From an uncultured bacterium (GTDB lineage: Bacteria > Patescibacteriota > Minisyncoccia > Phycocordibacterales > Phycocordibacteraceae): DNA of 64,000 bases. Under the pieces are notes generated by a model. It did no database searches. It was given only the letters and a program-made list of their open reading frames with translations, and was not told the origin of the DNA. The position numbers and the translations under genes were made by a program. The DNA is taken from contig CAMTYL010000003.1 of the NCBI GenBank assembly GCA_947085985.1, forward strand, positions 362,108-426,107. The letters run 5' to 3'. Within the stretch, counting starts at the first letter, position 1. Each line of letters begins with the position of its first letter. Of the stretch, positions 3,417 to 52,357 are shown piece after piece.

Positions 3417-5360
3417 ATGTCATCAGCACCAGCGCCTGCTCCTGCGCCAGGATTCCGAAAAGAGGAATCCTCGCAGGCAGCGGCACCCACCACCCCAAGC
3501 GGTAGCAACGGCAGGCCTCGCGGCACTCGCGGCGGTCGCGGACGCGGCGGTCAGGGACGCGCAGGCGACCGTGGACCGCGTAGCAGCGGCGGACGCCCTA
3601 TGCGCAGCGGAGGCGGTCGTCCGCAAGGAGGACAAGGCGCCCAAAAGAGCGACAAGAACAAGCCCGATTACCTTCCGGCACCGTGTGACGAGAAGACCGT
3701 GCGTATTGTGCCGCTTGGCGGCGTGGAGGAAGTAGGCCGCAACATGTTTGCGATTGAGACCAAGGACGACATCTTTGTATGTGATGCCGGGTTCCAGTTC
3801 GTACCAGGAGGAACTAATCCTGGTGTGGACTACATCCTTCCCAACACTCGCTACCTAGAAGCAAATCAGGACCGCGTACGCGCCGTCTTTATTACCCACG
3901 GCCACCTAGACCACATTGGCGGCATTCCCTTTCTGATGGGCCGTTTTGGCAATCCGCCTATCTACACGCAGAACCTTACGTCAGTAATGATTCTGAAGCG
4001 TCAGGAGGAGTACCCAGACATGCCCGCACTTGATGTGCGTGTGGTAGAGCCAGGCTCCACCGTCACCGTAGGCAGCTCTCGCGTTAAGTTCTTCCCCGTC
4101 ACCCACTCTATTCCAGACTCTATGGGTCTCTCGGTAGAGACTCCCTGGGGCAACGTGGTCGTGACCGGAGACTTGAAGCTTGATCACGAGGGTGGCATCC
4201 CAGCCGACCACGAGCAGAAGAAGTGGGCGTCCCTTGGACAAGGCAACAACCTCTTTTTCATTGCCGACTCCACAAACGCTGAGCGCGATGGATTCTCTAT
4301 TCCTGAAAGTCGTGTAAACGAAACTCTGGAGAACATTGTGCGCACGGTGCAGGGTCGCCTTATCATCGGTACCTTTGCGTCACAGTTTGAGCGCATGATT
4401 CGCATCATTCAGATTGCCGAGTCTATGGGCAAGAAGATTGTTATGGAGGGCCGCTCTATGAAGACCAACCTGGAAATCGCACAGATTACCGGACTCCTCA
4501 CTGTAAAGAAGGAGACCATCATCAGTGCGCAGGAAATCCAGGACTACCCACCAGATAAAATTGTCGTACTTGCAACAGGAGCACAGGGAGAAGAGTTTGC
4601 AGCACTTATGCGTATTGCTACCAAGCAGCACAAGAACATCATGCTCACCACTCGCGATACTGTGGTGCTTTCGTCATCCGTTATTCCGGGCAACGAAATC
4701 TCCGTGCAGAATTTGAAGGACATGTTGTACCGTAATGGCGCAACCCTCATTCACTACAAGTCTTCTGACGTGCACTCAACCGGACACGGAAACTCGGGCG
4801 AGCTCGTATGGATTAACCAGCAGGTTGGCGCAAAGTTCTTCATGCCTGCCTATGGCTACTACTCCATGACCAGCTGCCACGCAAAGGCAGTGGAGCAGGC
4901 AGGGCGCCCGCGCGACCAGATTGTGTTGGCTGACAACGGCTCCGTGATTGACCTCATTGAGGGCAAGACGATGTTCGTGCACAAGGAAAAGGTGCCGAGC
5001 GCGCCACTCGTTGTAGACGGCTTCTCTATTGGCGACATTCAGGAGGTAGTTATCCGCGATCGCCAGGCGCTCGCAAAGGACGGCATGTTTGTCATCATTG
5101 CGACGGTAAACCTAAAGACCGGAAAGCTTCGCAAGAGCCCCGACATCATTAGTCGCGGATTCATCTACCTGCGTGAAAACCAGGAGATGCTGAACCAGGC
5201 ACGTCTTCTCATCAAAAAGACAGTGGAGGACACTACCGAAGGCATGAACCCGGTAGACCTTGATTACGTAAAGAACGCGCTGTCAGACACCATGGCGGGC
5301 TATCTATTCACTCGCACGAATAAGGCACCGATGGTCATTCCTGTATTGATTGGGGTGTAA
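3417..5360 (+). CDS. rnj: Ribonuclease J (metallo-beta-lactamase/beta-CASP RNase) with ~85-aa N-terminal Arg/Gly-rich low-complexity extension
   Basis: HGHLDHIG zinc-binding motif, overall beta-CASP architecture; N-terminus RGGRGRGGQGRAGDRG repeats. Confidence 0.85.
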   Translation: MSSAPAPAPAPGFRKEESSQAAAPTTPSGSNGRPRGTRGGRGRGGQGRAGDRGPRSSGGRPMRSGGGRPQGGQGAQKSDKNKPDYLPAPCDEKTVRIVPLGGVEEVGRNMFAIETKDDIFVCDAGFQFVPGGTNPGVDYILPNTRYLEANQDRVRAVFITHGHLDHIGGIPFLMGRFGNPPIYTQNLTSVMILKRQEEYPDMPALDVRVVEPGSTVTVGSSRVKFFPVTHSIPDSMGLSVETPWGNVVVTGDLKLDHEGGIPADHEQKKWASLGQGNNLFFIADSTNAERDGFSIPESRVNETLENIVRTVQGRLIIGTFASQFERMIRIIQIAESMGKKIVMEGRSMKTNLEIAQITGLLTVKKETIISAQEIQDYPPDKIVVLATGAQGEEFAALMRIATKQHKNIMLTTRDTVVLSSSVIPGNEISVQNLKDMLYRNGATLIHYKSSDVHSTGHGNSGELVWINQQVGAKFFMPAYGYYSMTSCHAKAVEQAGRPRDQIVLADNGSVIDLIEGKTMFVHKEKVPSAPLVVDGFSIGDIQEVVIRDRQALAKDGMFVIIATVNLKTGKLRKSPDIISRGFIYLRENQEMLNQARLLIKKTVEDTTEGMNPVDLDYVKNALSDTMAGYLFTRTNKAPMVIPVLIGV

Positions 5361-6148: not shown

Positions 6149-7306
6149 ATGCACCCGAAGCGTGTTCTCTACATCGGCAACTTCTTTGCTGCCATGCACT
6201 TCTTTTTGATTGTGTATGTGATTGGTCCATATCTTTCAACCTTCCTACCTGACAATCAGACAGGCCTCGTCGTTGCAGCAGGTGCAGTGGGCACACTCAT
6301 CATGTTTCCGTTCATGCCGCGCATCGCTGGGCACTTTGGTGTGCGCAAGACAGCCATTGCTGTGGCGAGCCTTATTGCGGTTGCGCTCATGGTCCTTGCG
6401 GGCCAGCCACCCTTTTGGATTGCCGCATTTTGTTTGGCGCTGGTGTGTGGCACCACGCCCTTTATTCAGTACCTGCTAGACCTTCTGCTTGAGGCGGCTA
6501 GTACCGACAGTACCCAGATTGGCCGCATACGCACGCTTTTCATTACTTCGGGGAACGTTGCCCTTATTTCCGCTCCGCTTATTATCGCTTTTTTGCTTGG
6601 CGACACGAGCGAGTATTGGCGGGTATTTTTGGTAGCCTCTCTTTCTCTTACTCCTTTCATTACCCTCTTTCTATTTGAGCAGCTTCCAGAGCACCCGCCC
6701 ACTCACCGAGCAAAGCTTCTCGATAGTTGTAGGTGCCTGCTGGAACGAGCCGACGTACGCGCCTCCATTTTTGCAAATGGCGTGCTCCAATTTTTCTATC
6801 ACCTAGCACCTCTCTATATCCCTCTCTATTTGCACGGCGTGCTTGGGATTCCGTGGTCAGAGCTCGGGTGGATGTTTGCGGTAATGCTCCTTCCCTTTGT
6901 CCTTATTGAGTACCCCGCAGGCTACATTGCTGACCGTTGGCTTGGGGAAAAGGAAATCCTTATGGCGGGATTTGCTATCACAGGAGTGTCGTTCGCAGCG
7001 CTCGCGTTTGTGTCTACTACGACACCGCTTATGGTACTTCTTACCATTCTTATTGCTACCCGTATCGGCAGCGCACTTGTGGAAGCGATGGTGGACGGAC
7101 ACTTCTTTAAACGGGTTACGACAGAGGATGCAAACACCACCACCCTCTATCGTATGACGCGCCCGGTGTCAGCACTTATCGCCCCACTGTCTGCAAGCTT
7201 GTTGCTGCTACTTACTGGTAGCTACGTCGTCTTCTTTATCACTATGGGCGCACTGCTCCTTGTACTTGGTCTTGGTTGCAGCTATTTCATCAAGGACGAC
7301 CGCTAA
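6149..7306 (+). CDS. MFS-type transporter (12-TM-like membrane protein); TACAAT -10-like box 11 nt upstream of ATG
   Basis: 385 aa, multiple hydrophobic helices, MFS-like loop motifs. Confidence 0.65.
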   Translation: MHPKRVLYIGNFFAAMHFFLIVYVIGPYLSTFLPDNQTGLVVAAGAVGTLIMFPFMPRIAGHFGVRKTAIAVASLIAVALMVLAGQPPFWIAAFCLALVCGTTPFIQYLLDLLLEAASTDSTQIGRIRTLFITSGNVALISAPLIIAFLLGDTSEYWRVFLVASLSLTPFITLFLFEQLPEHPPTHRAKLLDSCRCLLERADVRASIFANGVLQFFYHLAPLYIPLYLHGVLGIPWSELGWMFAVMLLPFVLIEYPAGYIADRWLGEKEILMAGFAITGVSFAALAFVSTTTPLMVLLTILIATRIGSALVEAMVDGHFFKRVTTEDANTTTLYRMTRPVSALIAPLSASLLLLLTGSYVVFFITMGALLLVLGLGCSYFIKDDR

Positions 7307-7322
7307 CTCCACTACTATTCTG

Positions 7323-7360
7323 AAATTCAAACACTACCATATATGGTAGTGTTTGAATTT
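7323..7360. repeat. Palindromic repeat family copy 1 (38-bp perfect palindrome, core ACTACCATATATGGTAGT), intergenic between convergent genes
   Basis: aaattcaaacactaccata|tatggtagtgtttgaattt. Confidence 0.8.
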
Positions 7361-8255
7361 AGTTTGGCAGTTCAAATGTTCTGCCTCTTCGCATAATTAG
7401 TTTTTCTGCGACGAGCTTTTGCATCTGCTCTTCAACTTGCTCTCTTCGGTCTGCTTCAAAGAGAGAAAGTAGTTTTGTGCGAGTGGCACCGCCCTGTGTG
7501 AGAGTGCGTAGAATCGCACCTCGCACTTCTCTTCCGGAGCCCTTAAATGCTGACTGCTTTGTGTACCCTTTTGCGCGTGCGTTTATACGTACTCCAGAGC
7601 GCTTCAGGTGTGCGCCATAGTCCATGAGCGCCGCGTACCACTCTCTCGCCTTCCCGTTCGGGTGCATTTCTTTCAGAATAGAGAGTATTTGTGCGTCATC
7701 AACAGAATCCGAAATACTACCATATATGGTAGTATTTCGGATTCTGTTTTCTTTGCCAGTTACGGACGCTGGGAAGAAGTGGTGTGTGATTGCTGTGCGG
7801 ATATTGGTTTCTATAAATATGCCGTCTTGGTTGTAGGCAAACGCGGCCACTGCGCCCGCGGTGTAGGGGCCAATTCCAGGAAGTTTTTGAAGCTCGGCAG
7901 CACTTCCCGGAAATACAAGGTTCAACCTTGTATTTTTTGAAGCTGTATATACAGGCTGGTGTGACAGTATATATTTGGCAGCCTCGTGGAGCATCTTGGC
8001 TCTCCGGTTGTATCCAAGTCCCTGCCAAAGCTTGAGCACTTCAGAAAGAGGCGCCTCCGCGAGTGTCTTCACATTCGGAAACTGCTTCAGAAAGGTTCTG
8101 TAGTACGGTATTACCCGTTCAACTTGTGTCTGCTGAAGCATGACCTCCGACACCAGTATCTTGTATGGGTCGGAAGTCTTCCTCCACGGCAAATCATGAC
8201 GGCCATGTTCCTTCCAGTACTTCCAGACAGTTGCTCTAAACGTCTGTGCTTTCAT
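7359..8255 (-). CDS. HhH-GPD superfamily DNA glycosylase (MutY/Nth-like; no Fe-S cysteine cluster evident); carries an in-frame palindromic-repeat insertion at 7702-7747
   Basis: VSEVMLQQTQVERV, LPGIGPYTAGAV helix-hairpin-helix region; inserted segment encodes ENRIRNTTIYGSISDSV. Confidence 0.7.
   Translation of the reverse strand: MKAQTFRATVWKYWKEHGRHDLPWRKTSDPYKILVSEVMLQQTQVERVIPYYRTFLKQFPNVKTLAEAPLSEVLKLWQGLGYNRRAKMLHEAAKYILSHQPVYTASKNTRLNLVFPGSAAELQKLPGIGPYTAGAVAAFAYNQDGIFIETNIRTAITHHFFPASVTGKENRIRNTTIYGSISDSVDDAQILSILKEMHPNGKAREWYAALMDYGAHLKRSGVRINARAKGYTKQSAFKGSGREVRGAILRTLTQGGATRTKLLSLFEADRREQVEEQMQKLVAEKLIMRRGRTFELPN
7702..7747. repeat. Palindromic repeat family copy 2 (46-bp perfect palindrome) embedded in-frame in the glycosylase CDS
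   Basis: acagaatccgaaatactaccata|tatggtagtatttcggattctgt; compensatory C>T/G>A relative to other copies. Confidence 0.8.
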
Positions 8256-20335: not shown

Positions 20336-21337
20336 TCAATGCGCCTTGCGAAAGTTGTTTTGTATATGCTCGCTCAACATGTGGGCATTCCCGTGCTTCA
20401 AGAGCCCCAGGCATGACTGAATACTCTCTTCCTTTCCCTCTATTTCCATGATACGCCGCAGCATTCGTCGCTTGCTGGTGCTCCGTAGAGTGCGATGGTC
20501 AGGGAAATGCACCCAACCGAGAAAGTCTACCCCTGCCGAAAGTGTTCCGATTGATACTTTCCTTGGATGAAGCTCTAATTTCAGACGGGCATGTAGAAAT
20601 TCCTCAATACGAGGAAGGAGTGATTCGAGCAACATGCGGTCTTCCGAGAAGAAAGCAAAGTCATCCGCATACCGTATGTAGTGCTTAGCTTTTAGTTTAT
20701 GCTTTGCAAATTGGTCGAACTCGTTCATGTACACATTCACTAGAAGTTGTGAGGTAAGGTTGCCGAGTGGTAGACCCTTTCCCTTTTCACTACTTGAAAA
20801 GCTTTCGATAACTCTCCCAATGAGCCAGAGCGTATCTTCGTCTGACAAATAGGAACGGAGTATATCCATAAGCACATCTTGGTCTATTGAAGCAAAGAAC
20901 TTTCGAATATCACACTTCAGCACCCAACAGGTACGGGTACCGTTCTTTGATACCTTATAGCCAAATGCTTTGAATCTCTTCATTGCTCTGTGCGTTCCCT
21001 TTTTCTTTCGACATGAAAACGAGTCTGCAATAAAGGTACGGTCAAAGAGCGGATACAGCTTACGGTAAATAGCATGATGCAATAGGCGGTCTCGTACCAG
21101 TGCTTTATGTATATCTCGCGGTTTTGGGTCTGATATCTTAAAGGCCGTATATCCTCCGTGGGTATAGGTTTTCTCTTTTAAATCTTCTTGCAACTTGAAA
21201 ACATGGTGCATGAGAAAGCGTGAGAACTCACGAACATCCATTTTTCTTCGCTTCCCTTTTAGGAATTCGTGCCACGCTTCGAGCAGATTCTCGATTGAGA
21301 TGATATCTTCATATTTATGAACGAAGCGATTTCGCAT
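20336..21337 (-). CDS. Diversity-generating retroelement reverse transcriptase (DGR RT), copy 1
   Basis: 333 aa; YADD catalytic motif; DGR-specific LPLGNLTSQLLVNVYMNEFD (I/LGxxxSQ) motif; strong similarity to the Bordetella phage bRT family layout. Confidence 0.85.
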   Translation of the reverse strand: MRNRFVHKYEDIISIENLLEAWHEFLKGKRRKMDVREFSRFLMHHVFKLQEDLKEKTYTHGGYTAFKISDPKPRDIHKALVRDRLLHHAIYRKLYPLFDRTFIADSFSCRKKKGTHRAMKRFKAFGYKVSKNGTRTCWVLKCDIRKFFASIDQDVLMDILRSYLSDEDTLWLIGRVIESFSSSEKGKGLPLGNLTSQLLVNVYMNEFDQFAKHKLKAKHYIRYADDFAFFSEDRMLLESLLPRIEEFLHARLKLELHPRKVSIGTLSAGVDFLGWVHFPDHRTLRSTSKRRMLRRIMEIEGKEESIQSCLGLLKHGNAHMLSEHIQNNFRKAH

Positions 21338-21371
21338 ACGGCATTTAACGCCCCCCCCCCCACGATCTTTC

Positions 21372-21734
21372 GTGGCCGTCGTAGAGCGTGCAAAAGACCT
21401 CTATCGCGTGTGGCTGCCTGTGCGACGCAGTATGGCGCGGGACGAACGCTTCGGTATTGGCGCAAGAATAGACACCTTACTTCTCGATATTCTTGAGACT
21501 CTGCGAAAGGCAAGTTTTGTAGATACGACAAGCAAACCCGCTCTACTAGGTACAGCGATAGGTATAGCGGACTCATTGCGGTTCTTCTTGCAGATAGCAT
21601 GGGAAAACAAACTGATTGCTAATAAACAATACGAGGAACTCGCGGGTGCTGTCGAGGAGATAGGACGCATGACTGGAGGTTGGAGAAAGGGTGTTCTTAG
21701 TAAAACCCCGCTCAAGCAGAGCGGGGAAAGATAG
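21372..21734 (+). CDS. avd: Accessory variability determinant (Avd) / four-helix-bundle protein, encoded antisense to the DGR RT/TR strand
   Basis: 120 aa, pattern ...GIGARIDTLLLDILETL...LRFFLQIAWENKLIANKQYEELAGAVEEIGRMTGGW typical of Avd/23S-IVS four-helix-bundle family. Confidence 0.7.
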   Translation: MAVVERAKDLYRVWLPVRRSMARDERFGIGARIDTLLLDILETLRKASFVDTTSKPALLGTAIGIADSLRFFLQIAWENKLIANKQYEELAGAVEEIGRMTGGWRKGVLSKTPLKQSGER

Positions 21735-21739
21735 GAGTA

Positions 21740-21843
21740 GCGAGAAACGACGTGGTTGCCGTCGTTCCACTCGTTCGGGTTCGTAACCGGATTGGCTTCG
21801 ACATTCCAGCCGTCGTCGTTCCAGTTGGCGTTCACCGCCCAGA
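21740..21843 (-). repeat. DGR template repeat TR1 (A-rich on minus strand)
   Basis: 104-bp near-identical to 22165-22268; all ~20 mismatches are T (plus) = A (minus) in this copy. Confidence 0.8.
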
Positions 21844-22161
21844 CGATATGTGCATCACGCCATCCGTACCACTGCCCTTTGAATACTCTTAAGGCTGAAT
21901 CTCATGTGGGACCTCGGAAGTCCACGAGCGCAATGCACCTGTTTCTATTCTTTTTTAGAACATCTGCGGACACGCTTGTGCTTGGAATACCTCACGCAAT
22001 TCTCTTCCGCATATGTCCAAGGAGTTGCGTGCGAGCCGTAGCCAACACACCATAACTTCCTTGTTGTCATTGTATCAAAGCAAAGGACCCTCATCCCCAG
22101 TGCCGACAAAGCGACAAAGGTTCAGAGGGTCCAAGGGTCCGAAGACCAAAGTGACTGAGAA

Positions 22162-22779
22162 TCAGCGAGAAACGACGCGGCGGCCGTCGCGCCACTCGAG
22201 CGGGTACGCAACCGGAGAGGCCTCGACACGCCAGCCGTCGACGCCCCAGTCGGCGCCCACCGCCCAGAGGACTCCCTTCGCGTCAGCGACGTAGAAGATG
22301 AACCACTTGGACTTGTCGGCGGTCTTCAGGAACTCGAAGGTGTGCGCCAGGGCGACACGGGCCTTCTCGACCTTGTTCAGATCCTTGTCGCCGAGGGCGG
22401 CGAGGATCGGACCGTCGACAGACGACTTCCGCAGCTTGCGCTGCTTGGCCGTCATGGGCTTCACGTCTTCTTCGACGACATCGAGGAAATTCCCCTTGAA
22501 GTTGTCGCCGAGGTACGAGATCGGGAGTTCCCCGTTCCGATTGACCATGAACTTGTCGCGGGCGACGAAACGCTCGACGGCGGAGAGCTTCACGGGCTCG
22601 CCGACCTGTTCGAGCAAATCCGCGAGGACTTTCGGGGCGGCGGCGTGCTTGGCCTGACCCGCGTTGCCGGGTTCGGTAACAACGAGTTCGCCGCTCAACA
22701 CGCGAGCGATGGCGGATTCGCCACCAATTTTGTTGATGAGCGCCTCGACTTGGCCGAGGTTCACATTGCCGTACTTCAT
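22162..22779 (-). CDS. DGR target (variable) protein 1, 205 aa, C-terminal VR-encoded ligand-binding region
   Basis: C-terminus VLWAVGADWGVDGWRVEASPVAYPLEWRDGRRVVSR matches TR-encoded ...VWAVNANWNDDGWNVEANPVTNPNEWNDGNHVVSR. Confidence 0.75.
   Translation of the reverse strand: MKYGNVNLGQVEALINKIGGESAIARVLSGELVVTEPGNAGQAKHAAAPKVLADLLEQVGEPVKLSAVERFVARDKFMVNRNGELPISYLGDNFKGNFLDVVEEDVKPMTAKQRKLRKSSVDGPILAALGDKDLNKVEKARVALAHTFEFLKTADKSKWFIFYVADAKGVLWAVGADWGVDGWRVEASPVAYPLEWRDGRRVVSR
22165..22268 (-). repeat. DGR variable repeat VR1 at the 3' end of target gene 22162-22779
   Basis: Pairs with TR1; substitutions only at TR adenines; ends at the stop codon. Confidence 0.8.
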
Positions 22780-22981
22780 ATCGTGCTCCTTTCCGACTGT
22801 TTGTCGGAAGCATCCCTCTGCCCGAGGTTATAGGGGCCGTTGGCGGTTCGCCACAGCAGGAAATGGCCCTGTTGAGCCGCTTTCTGCTGTGGCGAAATTC
22901 TCAGCGTTTCAAAGACCAAATAGTCACTATTTATAATACTCTAGTTTGTATACCTTGTCAAGATTTGAAATGGTGCCGAGT

Positions 22982-30928: not shown

Positions 30929-32316
30929 GAAAAGCGCTGTACGTACGCCGCTACGTCAAACTTCTTTTCGCAACCTGAGCGCGCCATATAACGAACTGTT
31001 CCAAAGATAGGCCTCGTAAACCACGGCCGATCGTGGGTGCCTCCGATGGACCACGATATGCCAGCGTATCCATTAGGGTCTCTCCCATCAAGCTCGTAGG
31101 TGTCGTTTAAGTATATAGCTACCTTCATCGCACTCTCCGCGTCTTTACTCCATTCTAAAATTTTCTTTGCCCAGTACATGCGCATGTACCCGTGCATCTT
31201 TCCGGTCGTTGTCATTTCGCGCTGTGCAGCATTCCACAAGTCATCATGGGTCTCCGCGTTTTCCAACTGTTTGCGTGTATAGAGATACTCGCGCTCATCC
31301 CCTTCATGTGCAGCAAGCGTACTCCTTGCCCAATTCGGAAATCCTTCTACCGAAGCGTAGTCCTTGGTATAGAAACAAAAGTTATCCGCAAGTTCACGTC
31401 GCACAATTACATCTTCCAGAAAACTCGCAAGCGACGTGGCCTTCTCCCCAGAACCGTTTCGTTTTGGGTCCATCACACGAGCAACTACCTTCTGCGGCTC
31501 TCCCACGGTGCGGAGTGCGACGAGTGCAGCACGCTGAGGAGCTATGTGTCCATAATGAAAGTACGGTGACAGCCCCGACTGCCCCTCTTGATTTGGATCG
31601 TTTCTGGCCTCTCCATAGTCTGCAAGCCTGTGCTCTACAAAGGAGTGTAAGCGACGCATACCAGCCGTATACCCAGGAGTAATCCACGTTGCTTCGGGAA
31701 CGTCTGCCAACCCTTCTTGAGCAAGAACCGCGTCCCACGCAATCTTTGGAACATGTTTCGTGTACGGGTGCGGGTACCTCGTCAGGCGGGGAAATTCGTC
31801 CATGAACTCTGCAATACGTGCATGTATCTTTGGGCGAATAGTGCGTGCTGCATACTCGGCTTTAGTGGAAACTACTCTGACCGGCACAATGTTATGAGCA
31901 TCTACTTCGTACACGGGACAAGGAGCGCTACGGACAACATCTGCCACCCACGCTCGCTGTTTTGTGAGGGGTGAAAAGTCCGTTACCACAACAGACGCCT
32001 TATGCGTTACGAGAAATTCGCTGACGCCTTCTTCCCCTACAAGAAAGAACGGCGTCTCAACTTCCTCACACTGGCGAGCAACCTCCATAAGTCCACGCAC
32101 CTTGAACACGTGCTGGCGATAGCCACCACCGAGGAAACCTGGTGCTAGGTTGTAAGCAACAAGCACTGGCTGGCCCTGCTTCTTACCAAGCTCGCGCGCG
32201 TACTGGTACGCCCAATTGTCGTGAATTCGACAATCGCGATTCATCCAGTACACCACGGGGCCTTCGCCGACTTCCTCAGGACCACCAAGTAGAGTTATGC
32301 GTCCTTCGTGTACCAT
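30925..32316 (-). CDS. phr: Class II CPD deoxyribodipyrimidine photolyase
   Basis: SPYFHYGHI and FAD-binding C-terminal motifs typical of class II photolyases. Confidence 0.8.
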   Translation of the reverse strand: MVHEGRITLLGGPEEVGEGPVVYWMNRDCRIHDNWAYQYARELGKKQGQPVLVAYNLAPGFLGGGYRQHVFKVRGLMEVARQCEEVETPFFLVGEEGVSEFLVTHKASVVVTDFSPLTKQRAWVADVVRSAPCPVYEVDAHNIVPVRVVSTKAEYAARTIRPKIHARIAEFMDEFPRLTRYPHPYTKHVPKIAWDAVLAQEGLADVPEATWITPGYTAGMRRLHSFVEHRLADYGEARNDPNQEGQSGLSPYFHYGHIAPQRAALVALRTVGEPQKVVARVMDPKRNGSGEKATSLASFLEDVIVRRELADNFCFYTKDYASVEGFPNWARSTLAAHEGDEREYLYTRKQLENAETHDDLWNAAQREMTTTGKMHGYMRMYWAKKILEWSKDAESAMKVAIYLNDTYELDGRDPNGYAGISWSIGGTHDRPWFTRPIFGTVRYMARSGCEKKFDVAAYVQRFS

Positions 32317-34125: not shown

Positions 34126-35511
34126 CTAGTCTTTTTGGAGTGCCGGGTCAAAAATAGACGGAGGAAGCGTGTCTCCATTTAACAGTCGTGCAGTGCGCGA
34201 GGCACCCATGATAGACGGGAGCAGTCCCACGCCATTGCAACCAAGATTGTAGTGGAGCACAGGATTAAGTGGCTCTTGCCCTACCAAGCGCACGCGACTG
34301 CGTGTGTATCCCATAAGTCCGTGCCAGCAAAATTTGTAGGGAGTTTGTGTGCCTGGGTATCGCTTGTAATCGTTTGCAAGAAACTCAGTGATGTCGTCTC
34401 GGTATTTCTCGTCACACCCATCGCTTCGCACGTATGTCTTCAATTCTGGCAACTCCTTGTCTGGTCCCCCGACACAAATAAGGTTACGGGCTTCGTCTCC
34501 TGTTTGGTGAAAGGGTCTTCTAGTTAGATAGAAGTAGTCGTCTCCCATGGAATCATTGCTTCGTACATCGCTTGATTTTCCATAGTAGCTAATAGCTACG
34601 GGACTTGCAGTTCCTTCTTCTAGATAGCCAGCCATATAGCCAATGAGTCCCTGCACCTCGTGATGGAACTCGGTGTTTATATCAGGCCCGTCGTCGTTCG
34701 TAATGGTGAAATTTTCAAAACCGTTTGTTGCAAGCACCACGTGTGCCGCCGCCACGTCGTGACCGTTTGCAGTAAGGGACGCCCTACCCTCATGAAGCCT
34801 AACGTGCGACACGAGTGTCTCCTCGTGTAGACGAAAACGCTCTGGGTACGCGACAAGCAAATACCCCAGCACCTCTTCAGCCAAAAGCGCACTATTGCCG
34901 CAACCCTTATCTTCCGCAATCATTGCTATGTACTTGCGACTAGTAGTTTCAAGTACTCCGAGAATTTCTTCATGCTCTGCTTCTTCATAGAGCCCTGCGT
35001 ACTCTAGAGGAATAGCTGCCGTCCCCTCCCACCCGCGTGCAAGTACGATACGCTTCGCTGCCAGTCCGCCTAGAACACGCAGACGGTTATCTTCTAAATG
35101 CTCTATAAGTTGCTCCGTGATGCACAGACCTGCGTATCCAGTAAACCGGTGAATAGGGGTGGTCAGCTTTGCCTCGTCTATTACTTCATCAAGAAGTGTC
35201 CACGCATTCTCAACGGCACGGACGCCTTCACTAGCAAGTTCCAGACCAAAATCGTCTACCAGACTTTTGAACGAACGCTCAAAGTAGCTCACCAACTGTC
35301 CTGCGTTGTGTCCGGTTGCTCCATGCGCCACCTTTGTGCCTTCAATCAAGAGTACGGCCCGGTTGGTCTCGCGAAGTGTTGCATACGCCGTCATAATGCC
35401 CGCAATACCTCCACCAACTATCACTACGTCGGCAAGCAGGTCCTCGTCGAGCGGAACAACGGGGCGCGTGCGATTAAGTTGAGCAATCCAGGGTGAAGTA
35501 TTCGGTAGCAT
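34126..35511 (-). CDS. FAD-dependent oxidoreductase
   Basis: N-terminal Rossmann dinucleotide motif VVIVGGGIAGIMTAYA. Confidence 0.65.
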   Translation of the reverse strand: MLPNTSPWIAQLNRTRPVVPLDEDLLADVVIVGGGIAGIMTAYATLRETNRAVLLIEGTKVAHGATGHNAGQLVSYFERSFKSLVDDFGLELASEGVRAVENAWTLLDEVIDEAKLTTPIHRFTGYAGLCITEQLIEHLEDNRLRVLGGLAAKRIVLARGWEGTAAIPLEYAGLYEEAEHEEILGVLETTSRKYIAMIAEDKGCGNSALLAEEVLGYLLVAYPERFRLHEETLVSHVRLHEGRASLTANGHDVAAAHVVLATNGFENFTITNDDGPDINTEFHHEVQGLIGYMAGYLEEGTASPVAISYYGKSSDVRSNDSMGDDYFYLTRRPFHQTGDEARNLICVGGPDKELPELKTYVRSDGCDEKYRDDITEFLANDYKRYPGTQTPYKFCWHGLMGYTRSRVRLVGQEPLNPVLHYNLGCNGVGLLPSIMGASRTARLLNGDTLPPSIFDPALQKD

Positions 35512-35563
35512 AGTCTCCCTATTCTACCAGGCGGGTATCTCGCAGCCACCCCGTGGAAAAGAT

Positions 35564-35611
35564 ACACAAAATCTAAACACTACCATATATGGTAGTGTTT
35601 AGATTTTGTGT
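35564..35611. repeat. Palindromic repeat family copy 3 (48-bp perfect palindrome), intergenic
   Basis: acacaaaatctaaacactaccata|tatggtagtgtttagattttgtgt. Confidence 0.8.
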
Positions 35612-35631
35612 CTTTCTTGTGCTTCAGCGCT

Positions 35632-35991
35632 CTATTCTCCGTACCAGCTCTTCTGCCAAGACCTCATCTGAGCAATTTCTGCCGTTTGAGCTGAAATAAT
35701 CTCTTCTGCCATTTGCTTAAGTTCTACGTGTGCACCGCCCTGTAGTACTGCCTGTGCCATCTCCACAGCACCTTCGTGGTGAACTATCATCTCACTAAGA
35801 AACGCACGATCTAACGCGTCCCCTGTTTTTCCTTCAAGCGAAGACATCATGCCGTCCATAGCATGATGCATACCACTTTGTTCATTGCCGACCACCTTCT
35901 CTTGGTTGCTAGCGCCAATTGAATATCCCACCACCCCTGCCAGAATAACCGCGACTGCAAGAATACCCACCTGTGTTTTCTTTGTTTCCAT
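35632..35991 (-). CDS. DUF305-family protein (secreted, His-rich four-helix)
   Basis: MIVHHEGAVEMAQ...AEEIISAQTAEIAQM pattern. Confidence 0.55.
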   Translation of the reverse strand: METKKTQVGILAVAVILAGVVGYSIGASNQEKVVGNEQSGMHHAMDGMMSSLEGKTGDALDRAFLSEMIVHHEGAVEMAQAVLQGGAHVELKQMAEEIISAQTAEIAQMRSWQKSWYGE

Positions 35992-49389: not shown

Positions 49390-50385
49390 TTAAATAGTTA
49401 CACTATCCTGTAACGTTTGGACTCTGGTGGCGAGCTTTCTCGTATTTCCATGAGACATTAGGCCGAAATATGAACTCAGTCGTTCCTTGGACGTATTGTT
49501 CCTGAGCTTCGTAAACATCCTCCTTTTACTTACAGTCCTCAATACCCTGTGATCTGAGAAATGCACCCAGCCAAGAAAGTCCACGCCCGACGCAAAGGAC
49601 TTTATATATACCTTGTCCGGGTGCATGGTTAGTCCAAGATTGGTTTCTAGGAATTCATTCAACTGAGGGATGAGTGATTCAAGGTATCCTCGGTCTTCAC
49701 TGAGGAATACGAAATCATCAGCGTAGCGTATGTAGTACTTTGCCCGGAGACGGTGTTTAACGAACTGGTCGAATTCATTCATATACACGTTCGCGAAGAG
49801 TTGTGATGTGAGATTGCCAAGAGGTAGTCCCGTTTTAGGTGTAACCTCGAAGCTGGAGATTATCTCTCGTAAAAGATTCAGAATGTCTGGATCAGGAATA
49901 TGGGATTCAAGAATGGTCATCAGTTTGTTGTGCTTCATGGAGGCAAAGAACTTCCTGATATCGCACTTCAATACCCAGACCGTTCGAGTGTTATTGCGTC
50001 CTACCTTCTGAGAGAAAGCTTTGAATCTATCGAGAGCTTTATGTATGCCCTTTCCGTCACGACAGGAGTACGAGTCATGGATAAAGGTAGTATCAAAGAA
50101 TGGATATAGTTGGCGATATAGAGCGTGGTGCAGGAGCCGATCACGCACATTAGCCTTATGAATAATGCGAGGCTTGGGGTCAGAGATATTGAAACTTATA
50201 TATCCGCCATTGCGATACGACCTATTCTTTAAATCAGCGTGTAGGTCGAGGACGTGTCCCATGAGATTCGTTTCAAACTCCCGCACATCCTTTCGGGCGC
50301 GTTTTCCGTTCAAAAACTCTCGCCATGCGTCGAGTAGATTCTCCGTCGAGATGATATCTTGATATCTATGTCCGTACGCTCTCAT
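49390..50385 (-). CDS. DGR reverse transcriptase, copy 2 (paralog, ~60% aa identity to copy 1)
   Basis: YADD, LPLGNLTSQLFANVYMNEFD motifs. Confidence 0.85.
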   Translation of the reverse strand: MRAYGHRYQDIISTENLLDAWREFLNGKRARKDVREFETNLMGHVLDLHADLKNRSYRNGGYISFNISDPKPRIIHKANVRDRLLHHALYRQLYPFFDTTFIHDSYSCRDGKGIHKALDRFKAFSQKVGRNNTRTVWVLKCDIRKFFASMKHNKLMTILESHIPDPDILNLLREIISSFEVTPKTGLPLGNLTSQLFANVYMNEFDQFVKHRLRAKYYIRYADDFVFLSEDRGYLESLIPQLNEFLETNLGLTMHPDKVYIKSFASGVDFLGWVHFSDHRVLRTVSKRRMFTKLRNNTSKERLSSYFGLMSHGNTRKLATRVQTLQDSVTI

Positions 50386-50427
50386 ACCTCCAAGGCTACC
50401 CCCCCCCCGACACTTCCAGTGCTAGTG

Positions 50428-50760
50428 CAGGTCAAAAGTGTGTATATCCTTTGGAACTCTTACGCCGCAAAAATTCCTAAGACCGCTAAGTACTCTCTTG
50501 GTCTCAAGATAGATAATCTGTTTATAGATACGATTGAAGCAATTTCAATTGCCGCATTCCTACAGCGTGCCGAGAAACTTCCCTATCTCAAGAGAGCAAT
50601 TGCGCGAGTCGATACCCTGAAAGTCTTTCTACAGCTTGTATGGGAAATGAAGCTACTAGATACTAAGCAGTATGCGGAGATTTCAGAGAAGCTCTCGGAA
50701 GTAGGAAAAATGCTTGGAGGCTGGTACGGACAGGTAGTAAAGCAAAACTCCCCTGCATAG
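50428..50760 (+). CDS. avd: Avd-like four-helix-bundle protein, copy 2 (antisense to RT/TR strand); start uncertain
   Basis: ...KYSLGLKIDNLFIDTIEAI...LKVFLQLVWEMKLLDTKQYAEISEKLSEVGKMLGGW. Confidence 0.65.
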   Translation, partial: QVKSVYILWNSYAAKIPKTAKYSLGLKIDNLFIDTIEAISIAAFLQRAEKLPYLKRAIARVDTLKVFLQLVWEMKLLDTKQYAEISEKLSEVGKMLGGWYGQVVKQNSPA

Positions 50761-50781
50761 GCAGGAGAGAAATGAAGTAAG

Positions 50782-50907
50782 TTGCGAAGACGGAACACGA
50801 TGCGATTGTCGAGGTTCCACTGATTGTCGGGATTCGTCCAGTTCGTATTGAGCCACTGCTTGCCGTCCGAGTTCCGCTTGACGTTGAAGACGTTCGGGTT
50901 GCCGTCG
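50782..50907 (-). repeat. DGR template repeat TR2
   Basis: ~126 bp matching 51274-51398; ~24 mismatches, all TR-adenine (T on plus strand). Confidence 0.8.
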
Positions 50908-51257
50908 GAATCGGTTTGAGCGCCACACCATCTGTACCACCACCCCTTGAAAGTTCTTGGGGTTGAATCTTATGTGTGATCGTAATCACCAGTGTGACGC
51001 ACCAAGTATCTTCATTTTTGAAGTTTCTGCATACACCACGCTAGTTCAAATCGTAGTCGGAACTATTCTGGGTTGTATGGATACTGGGTTCGGTAGCAGA
51101 CGAGCCTATGGCTCCCGCGTATTCACCTACTGCCGTTTTTAAATATACCGTATGTAAATGTAGAAAGTCCCCGGGCGCATCACTGCGGCCGGGGACCCTT
51201 GATCGGAAGGACAAAGTATCAGAGGGACAAAGAGCCGAAGCTCTAGTCCCAAGGATC

Positions 51258-51956
51258 TTAGTCCTGAGTGACCTTGCGAAGACGGAACACGATGCGATTG
51301 CCGAGGCTCCACTGATTGCCGGGATGCGTCCAGTCCGCAATGAGCCACCGCTCGCCGCCCGAGCCCCGCCCGACGCGGAAGACGCTCGGGCGGCCGCCGG
51401 AAGCGGTAATCCGTTCCATCGCGATCCAGAGGACTTCGCCGTTGGGCTGATCCTTGTACTGGTCGCGGATGTGCGGACCCGCTTCCGCCGGAAGCAGTTC
51501 GACGACGTGGCCGTCGAGCCGTTCGGCGTTCTGCGCGCTCCACTCGGCAAGCCGGGTGGGATCGAGCAGTTCGGTCGTGGTCGGCATGCGCTCATAGCCG
51601 AAGTCGGCAGGGGTGAGGATGATCGTATCGATTTCCTCCTCCTTGTCGAGCGTCGTGAAGGCGTGGTTGTTGACCAGGCTCTTGGCGTAGTCGCTGACCG
51701 TGAAGCCAGCTTCGACGCGCTTGATGAGCGCCTTCTTGGCGACGCCGCCGATCAGGAACGTCCGCCACTTGGCGAACGCAGGCGTGACCACCAACAGGGG
51801 CGGTTCGGGCGTCTTCCCTTCGATGACGGCCTGGAGGGCCTTCATCACGTCGTCGAAGTTGGCATAGGAGCCGGACTTCACACGCCGGAACAGGTCGTTT
51901 TGGCGGACGGCGAGCTGACCCAGCTGACCGTCGGTGACAAGAGTCTTGGTATTCAT
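51258..51956 (-). CDS. DGR target (variable) protein 2 (233 aa from ATG 51956), paralog of target 1
   Basis: Shared FTVSDYAKSL../ISYLGDNFKGNF.. core and VR-encoded C-terminus ...ERWLIADWTHPGNQWSLGNRIVF. Confidence 0.7.
   Translation of the reverse strand: MNTKTLVTDGQLGQLAVRQNDLFRRVKSGSYANFDDVMKALQAVIEGKTPEPPLLVVTPAFAKWRTFLIGGVAKKALIKRVEAGFTVSDYAKSLVNNHAFTTLDKEEEIDTIILTPADFGYERMPTTTELLDPTRLAEWSAQNAERLDGHVVELLPAEAGPHIRDQYKDQPNGEVLWIAMERITASGGRPSVFRVGRGSGGERWLIADWTHPGNQWSLGNRIVFRLRKVTQD
51274..51398 (-). repeat. DGR variable repeat VR2 at the 3' end of target gene 51258-51956
   Basis: Pairs with TR2; A-specific substitution pattern. Confidence 0.8.
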
Positions 51957-52357
51957 GATATACCTCGTCGTGACAGTACTTTGCCGTTCAAGCTCACCAG
52001 TGTTCGGGTTCGCCACAGCGGAGAATGGCCTAGATAAGCCGCTCTTCGCTGTGGCGAATTCGCAAGGTTTTCAAGGAACAAGTCCGTACCACAGTATCAC
52101 AATATACGGGTAAAGTCAAGTCATTTTGACCGTTCCCGCTCAGAAGAATATCCTTATCAAATATGAGCCAAATAGTTATCGGGGTCGTCATTGCCGTTAT
52201 ATCGGCCATCATCATTTCCCTATTCCGAATTGGTGGAAATCAGAACGTAACGGTACATCACGTACAAAGCACTCATCGTGCTGGGACTCTTTGGAAACTA
52301 ATGATTGTTCTAGGCTGGGGCAGTGAAGTTCCCTCGCGAAGGAGCGGAGCAGCTTAT

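Follow-up and report, generated by a model that had tools for sequence, protein, structure and literature searches.

The 64,000-nucleotide stretch analysed here (positions 362,108 to 426,107 of contig CAMTYL010000003.1, assembly GCA_947085985.1; hereafter the window) comes from an uncultured member of the Patescibacteriota and raises the question why the same perfect palindrome occurs in it three times, once inside the reading frame of a DNA glycosylase gene. Patescibacteria, or Candidate Phyla Radiation (CPR), possess very few transcription factors and are mostly uncultivated, and to our knowledge almost nothing is known about their gene regulation. We propose, with a probability of roughly 60%, that the palindromes are cognate sites of an autoregulated Patescibacteria protein related to TrpR and YerC (HisR), and that such sites are shaped by growth of the palindrome and by occasional insertion. 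A description of this system was not found in the literature searched.

The 18-bp sequence ACTACCATATATGGTAGT matched the window exactly at 7333, 7716 and 35579, and no further match was detected there by a tool scan allowing up to 3 mismatches (0.01 expected) or by a script allowing up to 5. All three cores are the centres of perfect palindromes with zero spacer, none of which is assigned to a strand. Copy 1 (7323–7360) spans 38 bp around the core at 7333–7350 with flanks AAAC/GTTT, copy 2 (7701–7748) spans 48 bp around the core at 7716–7733 with flanks AAAT/ATTT, and copy 3 (35564–35611) spans 48 bp around the core at 35579–35596, its arms reaching 62 bp (35557–35618) at 90% pairing. The arms of the three copies are alike, copy 2 showing a symmetric C>T / G>A change (AAAT-core-ATTT versus AAAC-core-GTTT). 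Elsewhere in the 64 kb, zero-spacer palindromes of 16 bp or longer are limited to a single 16-mer at 31174. Over the whole window, Rfam covariance models gave 0 matches at gathering score, and a scan for tRNA and tmRNA genes found none. Exact matches and palindrome search thus bear out the three palindromes with a common 18-bp core that had been reported in the initial annotation; copy 2 had been placed there at 7702–7747, and of this the palindromy stands while the limits had to be corrected.

The core was then sought in the genome_contigs collection (one genome per species, 596 Gb). The exact 18-mer was present in 90 stretches, compared to about 9 expected by chance (596 Gb / 4^18), and approximately 76 of these belong to Patescibacteria/CPR metagenome-assembled genomes (MAGs) from about 30 genomes, namely Kaiserbacteria, Paceibacterota, Parcubacteria, Saccharibacteria, Moran- and Falkowbacteria. 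The palindromes therefore represent a true repeat family, as had been supposed, and the finding is real and more general than is seen from the window alone. Exact cores number only ~5–12 per genome, and those of OY969413.1, a complete genome of 993 kb, are scattered over it at 258, 457, 648, 702.5 and 703 kb. A scan of viral_contigs yielded 2 matches, near chance level, and a match in Treponema was discarded, being a coincidence imposed by the protein sequence (the FtsK motif LPYxVV). Conservation across copies is central and not terminal. Of 84 CPR copies, 44 lie in long open reading frames (ORFs), always in one of two stop-free frames encoding TTIYGS or LPYMVV. The noncoding copies are often found 10–40 nt past stop codons (10 of them between convergent genes) and have longer arms (median 13.5 versus 10.5 in genes). 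Pairing past the first mismatch resumes for at least 4 positions in only 1 of the 84.

Two sets of loci stand somewhat apart. In the Saccharibacteria MAG CAYHYY01 (stretches L003, L037, L043, L044, L053, L056, L064, L065, L068, L071 and L082) the core is a building block of mosaic repeats that are dispersed in more than 10 copies, resemble bacterial interspersed mosaic elements and combine several recurring modules, such as GGGGATTGAAACCTAGTAAATCCCG and GAGATTCTCTTGACGGTACTCCGTC..GAGAATCCAAGTGTGGTCG; one of the modules also occurs beside the regulator gene described below in L023. Outside Patescibacteria, the 18-mer was found in AT-rich intergenic DNA of Kiritimatiellota (L024, about 365–450), Lachnospiraceae (L002, L008, L022, L028, L046, L052, L084) and Bacillota (L005, L032), once as three tandem CTACC-N6-GGTAG palindromes. 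A brief look at these loci (Agathobacter, Lachnobacterium, other Bacillota, Kiritimatiellota) revealed no TrpR-like gene or informative neighbour, and the sites may be operators of unrelated factors.

The candidate partner of the motif is a small gene that it brackets. At two loci a pair of cores lies ~480 bp apart around an ORF of 142 amino acids (aa). The encoded regulator (length range 136–145 aa; 1425 homologues in the protein database) matches the Pfam family Trp_repressor (2.6e-15) and TIGR02531 YerC/YecD (43 bits, cut-off 42.2). Its closest solved structures are 3FRW, 3KOR and 3G1C, followed by E. coli TrpR, and an AlphaFold2 (AF2) model with a predicted local distance difference test score (pLDDT) of 85 gave TM-scores of 0.81–0.87 against these structures. 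A TrpR-like gene adjoining the core was identified by tblastn in 8 genomes, with one site abutting the ATG and another past the stop codon. For an unbiased test, loci were fetched from metagenomes by the protein alone, ignoring the motif, which yielded 70 distinct regulator genes. A perfect palindrome of at least 16 bp was present within 75 nt upstream in 54 of 69 genes and a perfect palindrome within 140 nt downstream in 55 of 65, and 43 of the 44 genes having both carry the same half-site on the two sides. The distance between upstream core and ATG is mostly 5–12 nt, and extra copies in the regulator loci carry the local variant. The gene order obg / regulator / secA is conserved. The regulator is therefore a chromosomal gene, and this order also rules out that regulator and flanking palindromes constitute a mobile cassette. 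At the more divergent regulator genes of L150 and L167, the flanking sites are non-palindromic and are reverse complements of each other (TTACCATATAAGGTAA, TTACCTTATATGGTAA).

Not only the position but also the sequence of the sites follows the protein. The general form of the motif is ACT-NNN-ATATAT-NNN-AGT, of which ACTACCATATATGGTAGT and ACTATGATATATCATAGT are named forms; the half-site ACT-NNN-ATA carries a lineage-specific triplet (ACC, TCC, TTC, ATC, ACG, ATG, TTG and others), the window having ACC/GGT. When helix positions were placed by alignment to Ala80 and Thr83 of TrpR, half-sites ending in ..TGATA were always accompanied by Asp at the residue aligned with Ala80, and those ending in ..CATA by non-Asp residues. 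In the recognition helix, ACGATA pairs with RNVD and GACTTGATA with DTVWRV. Between the alternatives originally offered, a hairpin or cruciform on the one hand and a site for a dimeric protein on the other, the latter fits best.

Upstream of the regulator gene itself, genomes of the TCC, ATC and TTC types have hybrid operators that keep ..AGTAT next to the ATG. This was seen in L098, L099, L104, L106, L114 and L060, where the dispersed copies are of the TCC type and the operator at the ATG is the hybrid ACTTCCATATATGGTAGTAT. In it, 6–9 nt separate TAGTAT from the start codon, too few for a Shine-Dalgarno sequence. Judged from the sequence, the hybrid suggests that the operator contains a −10 box and that the mRNA is leaderless. 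The regulator also possesses a tail of ~40 aa ending in the near-invariant KKRYPLHFLLFPEP (proteins P0121–P0240). The tail lies past the end of the HisR/YerC-type and TrpR structures, was modelled as helices followed by a disordered end, and may serve as a partner-binding peptide.

Many of the in-gene copies occupy orthologous codons: those in tryptophanyl-tRNA synthetase (TrpRS, trpS), DnaG and MurC in 5 genomes each, in PheT in 4, and in enolase (eno) and a reverse transcriptase (RT) of the diversity-generating retroelement (DGR) type in 3 each. Single cases in AlaRS-, MurD-, MiaA-, HolB- and MGMT-like proteins were judged by eye from peptides only. The copies stay at the same codon across genera with the variant changing in place, and they follow the same half-site variants as the regulator genes. 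TrpRS shows no length variation, and ~15 of 120 close homologues have TTIYGS in place of E-x-I-Y-x-E. TrpRS forms with TSIYGS, picked by the peptide alone, proved to be ACTTCCATATATGGAAGT in DNA, which is the sole palindromic encoding of this peptide among 3456. It is the TCC variant, which was also found flanking the regulator gene of L098 from the same metagenome. Likewise, the two RT genes of the window have LPRIEE and IPQLNE at equal length where relatives have LPYMVV. Hence in TrpRS and DGR RT the 18 bp arises without a change in length.

The RT genes of the window belong to two DGR-like cassettes, A (20345–22896; RT gene 21769..20345 on the − strand) and B (49429–52058; RT gene 50406..49429 on the − strand), both with Pfam RVT_1. 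Direct repeats resembling template and variable repeats were found at 21739–21846 versus 22164–22271 (81%) in A and at 50782–50915 versus 51274–51407 (84%) in B, and both cassettes carry a related GC-rich inverted repeat (22847–22896 and 52009–52058).

Copy 2 took a different route into its gene. Its host (7359..8255, − strand) encodes a MutY-like HhH-GPD/HhH DNA glycosylase of 298 aa (Pfam HhH-GPD 2e-18; TIGR01084 mutY 2.4e-49, under the family cut-off), and homologues are mostly 269 aa long. ORF and domain search confirmed the assignment of copy 2 to this frame, in which it encodes ENRIRNTTIYGSISDSV, or NRIRN-TTIYGS-ISDSV with the arms. Among 120 homologues, 84 have no insert and always a 9-residue segment at this position, 27 carry the core or a symmetric variant and 9 carry unrelated inserts; insert-bearing and empty alleles are interleaved on a neighbour-joining tree. 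The core is present in the same glycosylase in L011, L031, L038 and L076. In the AF2 model (pLDDT 86.5), residues 161–180, which include copy 2, form an unstructured loop between two helices, with pLDDT below 50 for residues 166–179. The segment is thus extra relative to most orthologues and lies in a low-confidence loop, in agreement with the variable loop anticipated for it. Comparison of the DNA with three syntenic relatives (L091, L092, L093) demonstrated an empty site in L093 (72% identical), CAAAATACTATCATATATGATAGTATTTTG in L091 and GAAACCATACCATATATGGTATGGTTTC in L092. In L091 and L092 the inner 28–30 bp are perfect with symmetric changes (ACTATC..GATAGT and CATACC..GGTATG at the same codons), and the outer arms have decayed. 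Symmetry is hence maintained by compensated changes, as the initial annotation had deduced. Orthologues holding the segment stripped of palindromy, which it had named as a refuting outcome, were not what was found; the opposite holds, palindromy being kept. On this sequence evidence, copy 2 marks a genuine insertion site in the glycosylase.

The same loop (window ~7690–7770) carries unrelated inserts in other lineages, among them VQHQVLN, IGHPMSN, SSMVYHST and SSLRSARAARPIQHL (homologues P0035, P0040, P0048, P0066, P0083, P0091, P0096, P0106 and P0109). Such peptides match what other short inverted repeats would encode, a comparison made on proteins only, and several kinds of palindromic DNA seem to favour this loop as a hot spot.

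Copy 1 occupies the gap where the glycosylase gene and an MFS transporter gene (6149..7306, + strand) converge, between their stop codons, and overlaps the glycosylase stop by 2 nt; the spacer holding it (7307..7358, no strand) measures 52 nt. The MFS/glycosylase synteny is kept in L091–L093. L091 and L093 have overlapping stop codons here (CTAA/CTAG) and no spacer, and the spacer with copy 1 (about 52–53 nt) is therefore a recent gain in the lineage of the window. Relative to these two, the gained stretch comprises copy 1 and ~15 further nt, and comparison of the window with L091/L093 showed no target-site duplication at copy 1. In L092 the spacer matching this site (3892–4015) contains another, imperfect inverted repeat (GCGCTTCAAATTGGTCACCTGC ... 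GCAGGTGGCCGATTTGGAGTGTGC); this spot therefore attracts more than one kind of hairpin-forming DNA. Copy 3 is located between tandem − strand genes, after the stop of a DUF305 gene (35632..35991, stop 20 nt from copy 3) at 35632 and before the start, at 35511, of a gene for an oxidoreductase of the DAO family dependent on flavin adenine dinucleotide (FAD; 34126..35511, start 52 nt past copy 3). Regulation of the FAD oxidoreductase gene via copy 3 is possible.

As RNA, all copies would fold into very stable hairpins (−28 to −36 kcal/mol; z-scores −7 to −11). Copies 1 and 3 had been proposed to double as terminators. For copy 3 this prediction is supported, as it is terminator-like on both strands with a hairpin of −34.3 kcal/mol followed by UAUCUUUUCC. 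In copy 1, the hairpin of about −28 kcal/mol on either strand has no U-run and is not called a terminator by a simple scan. Copy 2 forms a hairpin of −36.5 kcal/mol in the sense mRNA and is terminator-like on the antisense strand only.

Taken as operators of the TrpR/YerC-like regulator, these sites would act as follows. The upstream copy, 5–12 nt before the ATG, would overlap a likely −10 box (TAGTAT), and this overlap implies autorepression of a near-leaderless mRNA by the predicted binding of the regulator. Dispersed sites could originate by two routes, either by substitution in codons already resembling the motif (TrpRS, RT) or by insertion where a loop or spacer tolerates it (glycosylase, copy 1). 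Past the core, the arms would become perfect via inverted copying of the local flank. The left arm in the window, ATC CGA AAT, reads exactly as ATT TCG GAT on the opposite strand, and these three triplets correspond to the native codons for V/I-S-D, found immediately after the core in orthologues of the short form (L076 has GTT TCG GAT); the arms were therefore made from the local flank. This pattern fits snap-back templating, the mechanism predicted for arm growth. Where a copy follows a gene end or separates convergent genes, its A/T-rich arms might allow it to function as an RNA hairpin or terminator as well. Proteins of the TrpR family (HisR, that is YerC, and TrpR) use 18–20-bp palindromic operators with a lineage-specific consensus and are frequently autoregulated (PMC9413887).

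Several observations weigh against regarding the palindromes as operators of this regulator. A TrpR-like gene was not detected by tblastn in the 64-kb window. A TrpR-type dimer needs ~20 bp, whereas perfect symmetry here extends over 38–54 bp; the hybrid upstream operators indicate that the protein tolerates asymmetry, and the perfect dispersed copies therefore need another explanation, for instance that they serve as hairpins or arose by templating. That 44 of 84 copies reside inside long ORFs is unusual for a repressor regulon. The window sites are all-or-none, with nothing at up to 5 mismatches, which resembles mutual copies more than a degenerate regulon, and in CAYHYY01 the core behaves as a module of dispersed repeats. 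Finally, the correlation between helix and half-site is partly confounded by shared ancestry, and the ACC, TCC and ATC types have nearly the same recognition helix.

For these reasons other explanations deserve attention. The TrpR-fold protein and the palindromes might form a new partnership comparable to that between repetitive extragenic palindromic (REP) sequences, their hairpin-forming doublets (REPINs) and REP-associated tyrosine transposases (RAYTs), which would cover the bracketing, the genome-wide co-evolution, the seeding of ~50-bp copies and the positions in essential genes; we consider this a tentative possibility. The protein might accordingly be pictured, just as tentatively, as a global or architectural factor or a keeper of the repeat instead of a repressor of an amino-acid operon. 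Membership of the RAYT family itself was rejected, the flanked gene encoding a TrpR-fold helix-turn-helix (HTH) protein and not an HUH (Y1) transposase.

A rather improbable variant holds that the elements are selfish repeats of the REP/REPIN kind or like the Rickettsia palindromic elements (RPEs), palindromes of ~40–50 bp copy-pasted also into coding loops, with the TrpR-like gene merely bracketed or a RAYT-style partner and no classical regulator. The gain of copy 1 with its ~15 nt relative to L091 and L093, the interleaved glycosylase alleles whose empty sites always hold 9 residues, the similar arms and all-or-none character of the window copies, the mosaic repeats of CAYHYY01 (>10 copies) and the many noncoding copies at 3′ ends or between convergent genes would all be accommodated. 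So would a single-copy gene flanked by its own co-varying repeat, an arrangement reportedly recognised by Nunvar in 2010 and by Bertels and Rainey in 2011 as the hallmark of REPIN-RAYT systems. However, the partner is a TrpR-fold HTH protein with no catalytic HUH/Tyr or DDE domain, neither a target-site duplication nor an interior enclosed by terminal inverted repeats was observed, and exact copies amount to only ~5–12 per genome. Furthermore, the TrpRS and RT copies came without an indel, the same codon is held across genera while the variant changes in place, and the outer arms decay while the core stays symmetric.

Some established classes of mobile palindromes were set aside altogether. 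RPE membership was rejected since the units measure 38–48 bp with an 18-bp core and the hosts are Patescibacteria; the kinship to RPEs that had first been suspected is further contradicted by a conserved centre instead of conserved termini, the low copy number, gains without indel and the link to a vertical TrpR-like gene. The target-site duplications that might have been expected did not appear when filled and empty sites were compared. A transposon resembling miniature inverted-repeat transposable elements was excluded by the absence of such duplications and of terminal inverted repeats and by the central conservation. No transposase was seen beside the copies, the whole window not having been screened for transposases.

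It is very unlikely that the palindromes are pure RNA hairpins, that is, intrinsic terminators or mRNA-stabilising stems whose DNA sequence is read by no protein. Their stability (−28 to −36 kcal/mol, z-scores −7 to −11), the T-runs following copy 3 and many copies elsewhere 10–40 nt past stop codons, and the longer arms outside genes (median 13.5 versus 10.5) are what such stems would show. Yet a hairpin does not need 18 invariant nucleotides across phylum-level lineages; the motif co-varies with a DNA-binding helix, and its upstream copies abut a start codon. The palindromes moreover end abruptly (pairing resumes for at least 4 positions in 1/84), copy 1 lacks a T-run, and the gene whose sense mRNA contains copy 2 is intact, copy 2 being terminator-like in antisense only.

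Little credence can likewise be given to chromosome marks for organisation, segregation or DNA uptake (like parS, matS or the sites of Noc and RefZ) with an architectural TrpR-like protein: perfect palindromes are few and many sit at conserved positions in conserved genes, they are dispersed at 5 positions in the 993-kb OY969413.1 and the conserved C-terminal tail (KKRYPLHFLLFPEP) could recruit a partner, but no clustering near origin or terminus could be shown (a weak test, the origin of OY969413.1 being unplaced), the density is far under that of uptake sequences, and the regulator has no ParB-, Noc- or MatP-type domain (Noc match E = 0.16, not significant). Two other operators, the NrdR box (acaCwAtATaTwGtgt) and the CsoR-type TACC-N6-GGTA operator, were dropped once the TrpR-like gene was found bracketed, and the in-gene copies do not suit them; a literature lead to a Patescibacteria LexA yielded no motif for comparison.

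The autoregulated TrpR/YerC-like protein thus remains our preferred explanation. It ties one of the most conserved HTH proteins of the CPR to a precise 18-bp site and offers a built-in specificity code in which the half-site triplet can be read against the recognition helix, so that a regulon or an architectural system becomes directly testable. In this family, binding-site palindromes can also be followed as they lengthen into long hairpins and enter coding loops, which makes it a clean natural example of both processes. For annotation it is a warning that peptides of the TTIYGS/LPYMVV type in CPR proteins reflect constraint at the DNA level.

Compared with known systems, the palindromes share single traits with several. 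Like RPEs, they include palindromic DNA inserted in frame at tolerated surface positions of protein-coding genes. RPEs are numerous, about 100–150 bp long and specific to Rickettsia, and we know of no cognate protein for them; here the phylum is another one, the unit is an 18-bp core whose arms derive from the local flank, and it was often gained without insertion. The resemblance to parS/ParB, matS/MatP and RBM/RefZ consists in few perfect palindromes, often in genes and at positions conserved between species, whereas the protein families differ and positional clustering is not established here. Correction of quasipalindromes, in which an imperfect inverted repeat is perfected by copying one arm, fits the left arm in the window. 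The underlying Ripley model of intramolecular template switching is said to describe a mutational mechanism in E. coli and phage T4, whereas here the process is deduced from the comparison of orthologues alone. With REP/REPIN-RAYT systems the family has in common a vertically inherited single-copy gene that has its cognate palindromic repeat on either side, further copies scattered over 3′ ends and the spacers of convergent gene pairs, and co-variation of the repeat with the protein clade; in contrast, the partner resembles an HTH repressor and not an HUH tyrosine transposase, copies number tens at most and not hundreds, and they also occur inside genes.

The closest relatives are TrpR of E. 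coli and HisR (YerC) of Firmicutes, which have the same fold and belong to the same family as the regulator. Their operators, like the putative ones here, are 18–20-bp palindromes of two half-sites, a site lies over the regulator's own promoter (here in the relatives), and the operator consensus is lineage-specific and tracks the protein (PMC9413887). Genes of trp or his biosynthesis were not observed beside any of the sites here. The consensus differs (ACTNNNATATATNNNAGT here, TGTACTAGTTAACTAGTACA for TrpR, cacTTTAnnnnnnTAAAgtg for HisR), and unlike TrpR and HisR the Patescibacteria regulator is extended by a conserved ~40-aa tail and has a second site past its gene, perfect palindromy reaching 38–54 bp, and sites of which half are coding.

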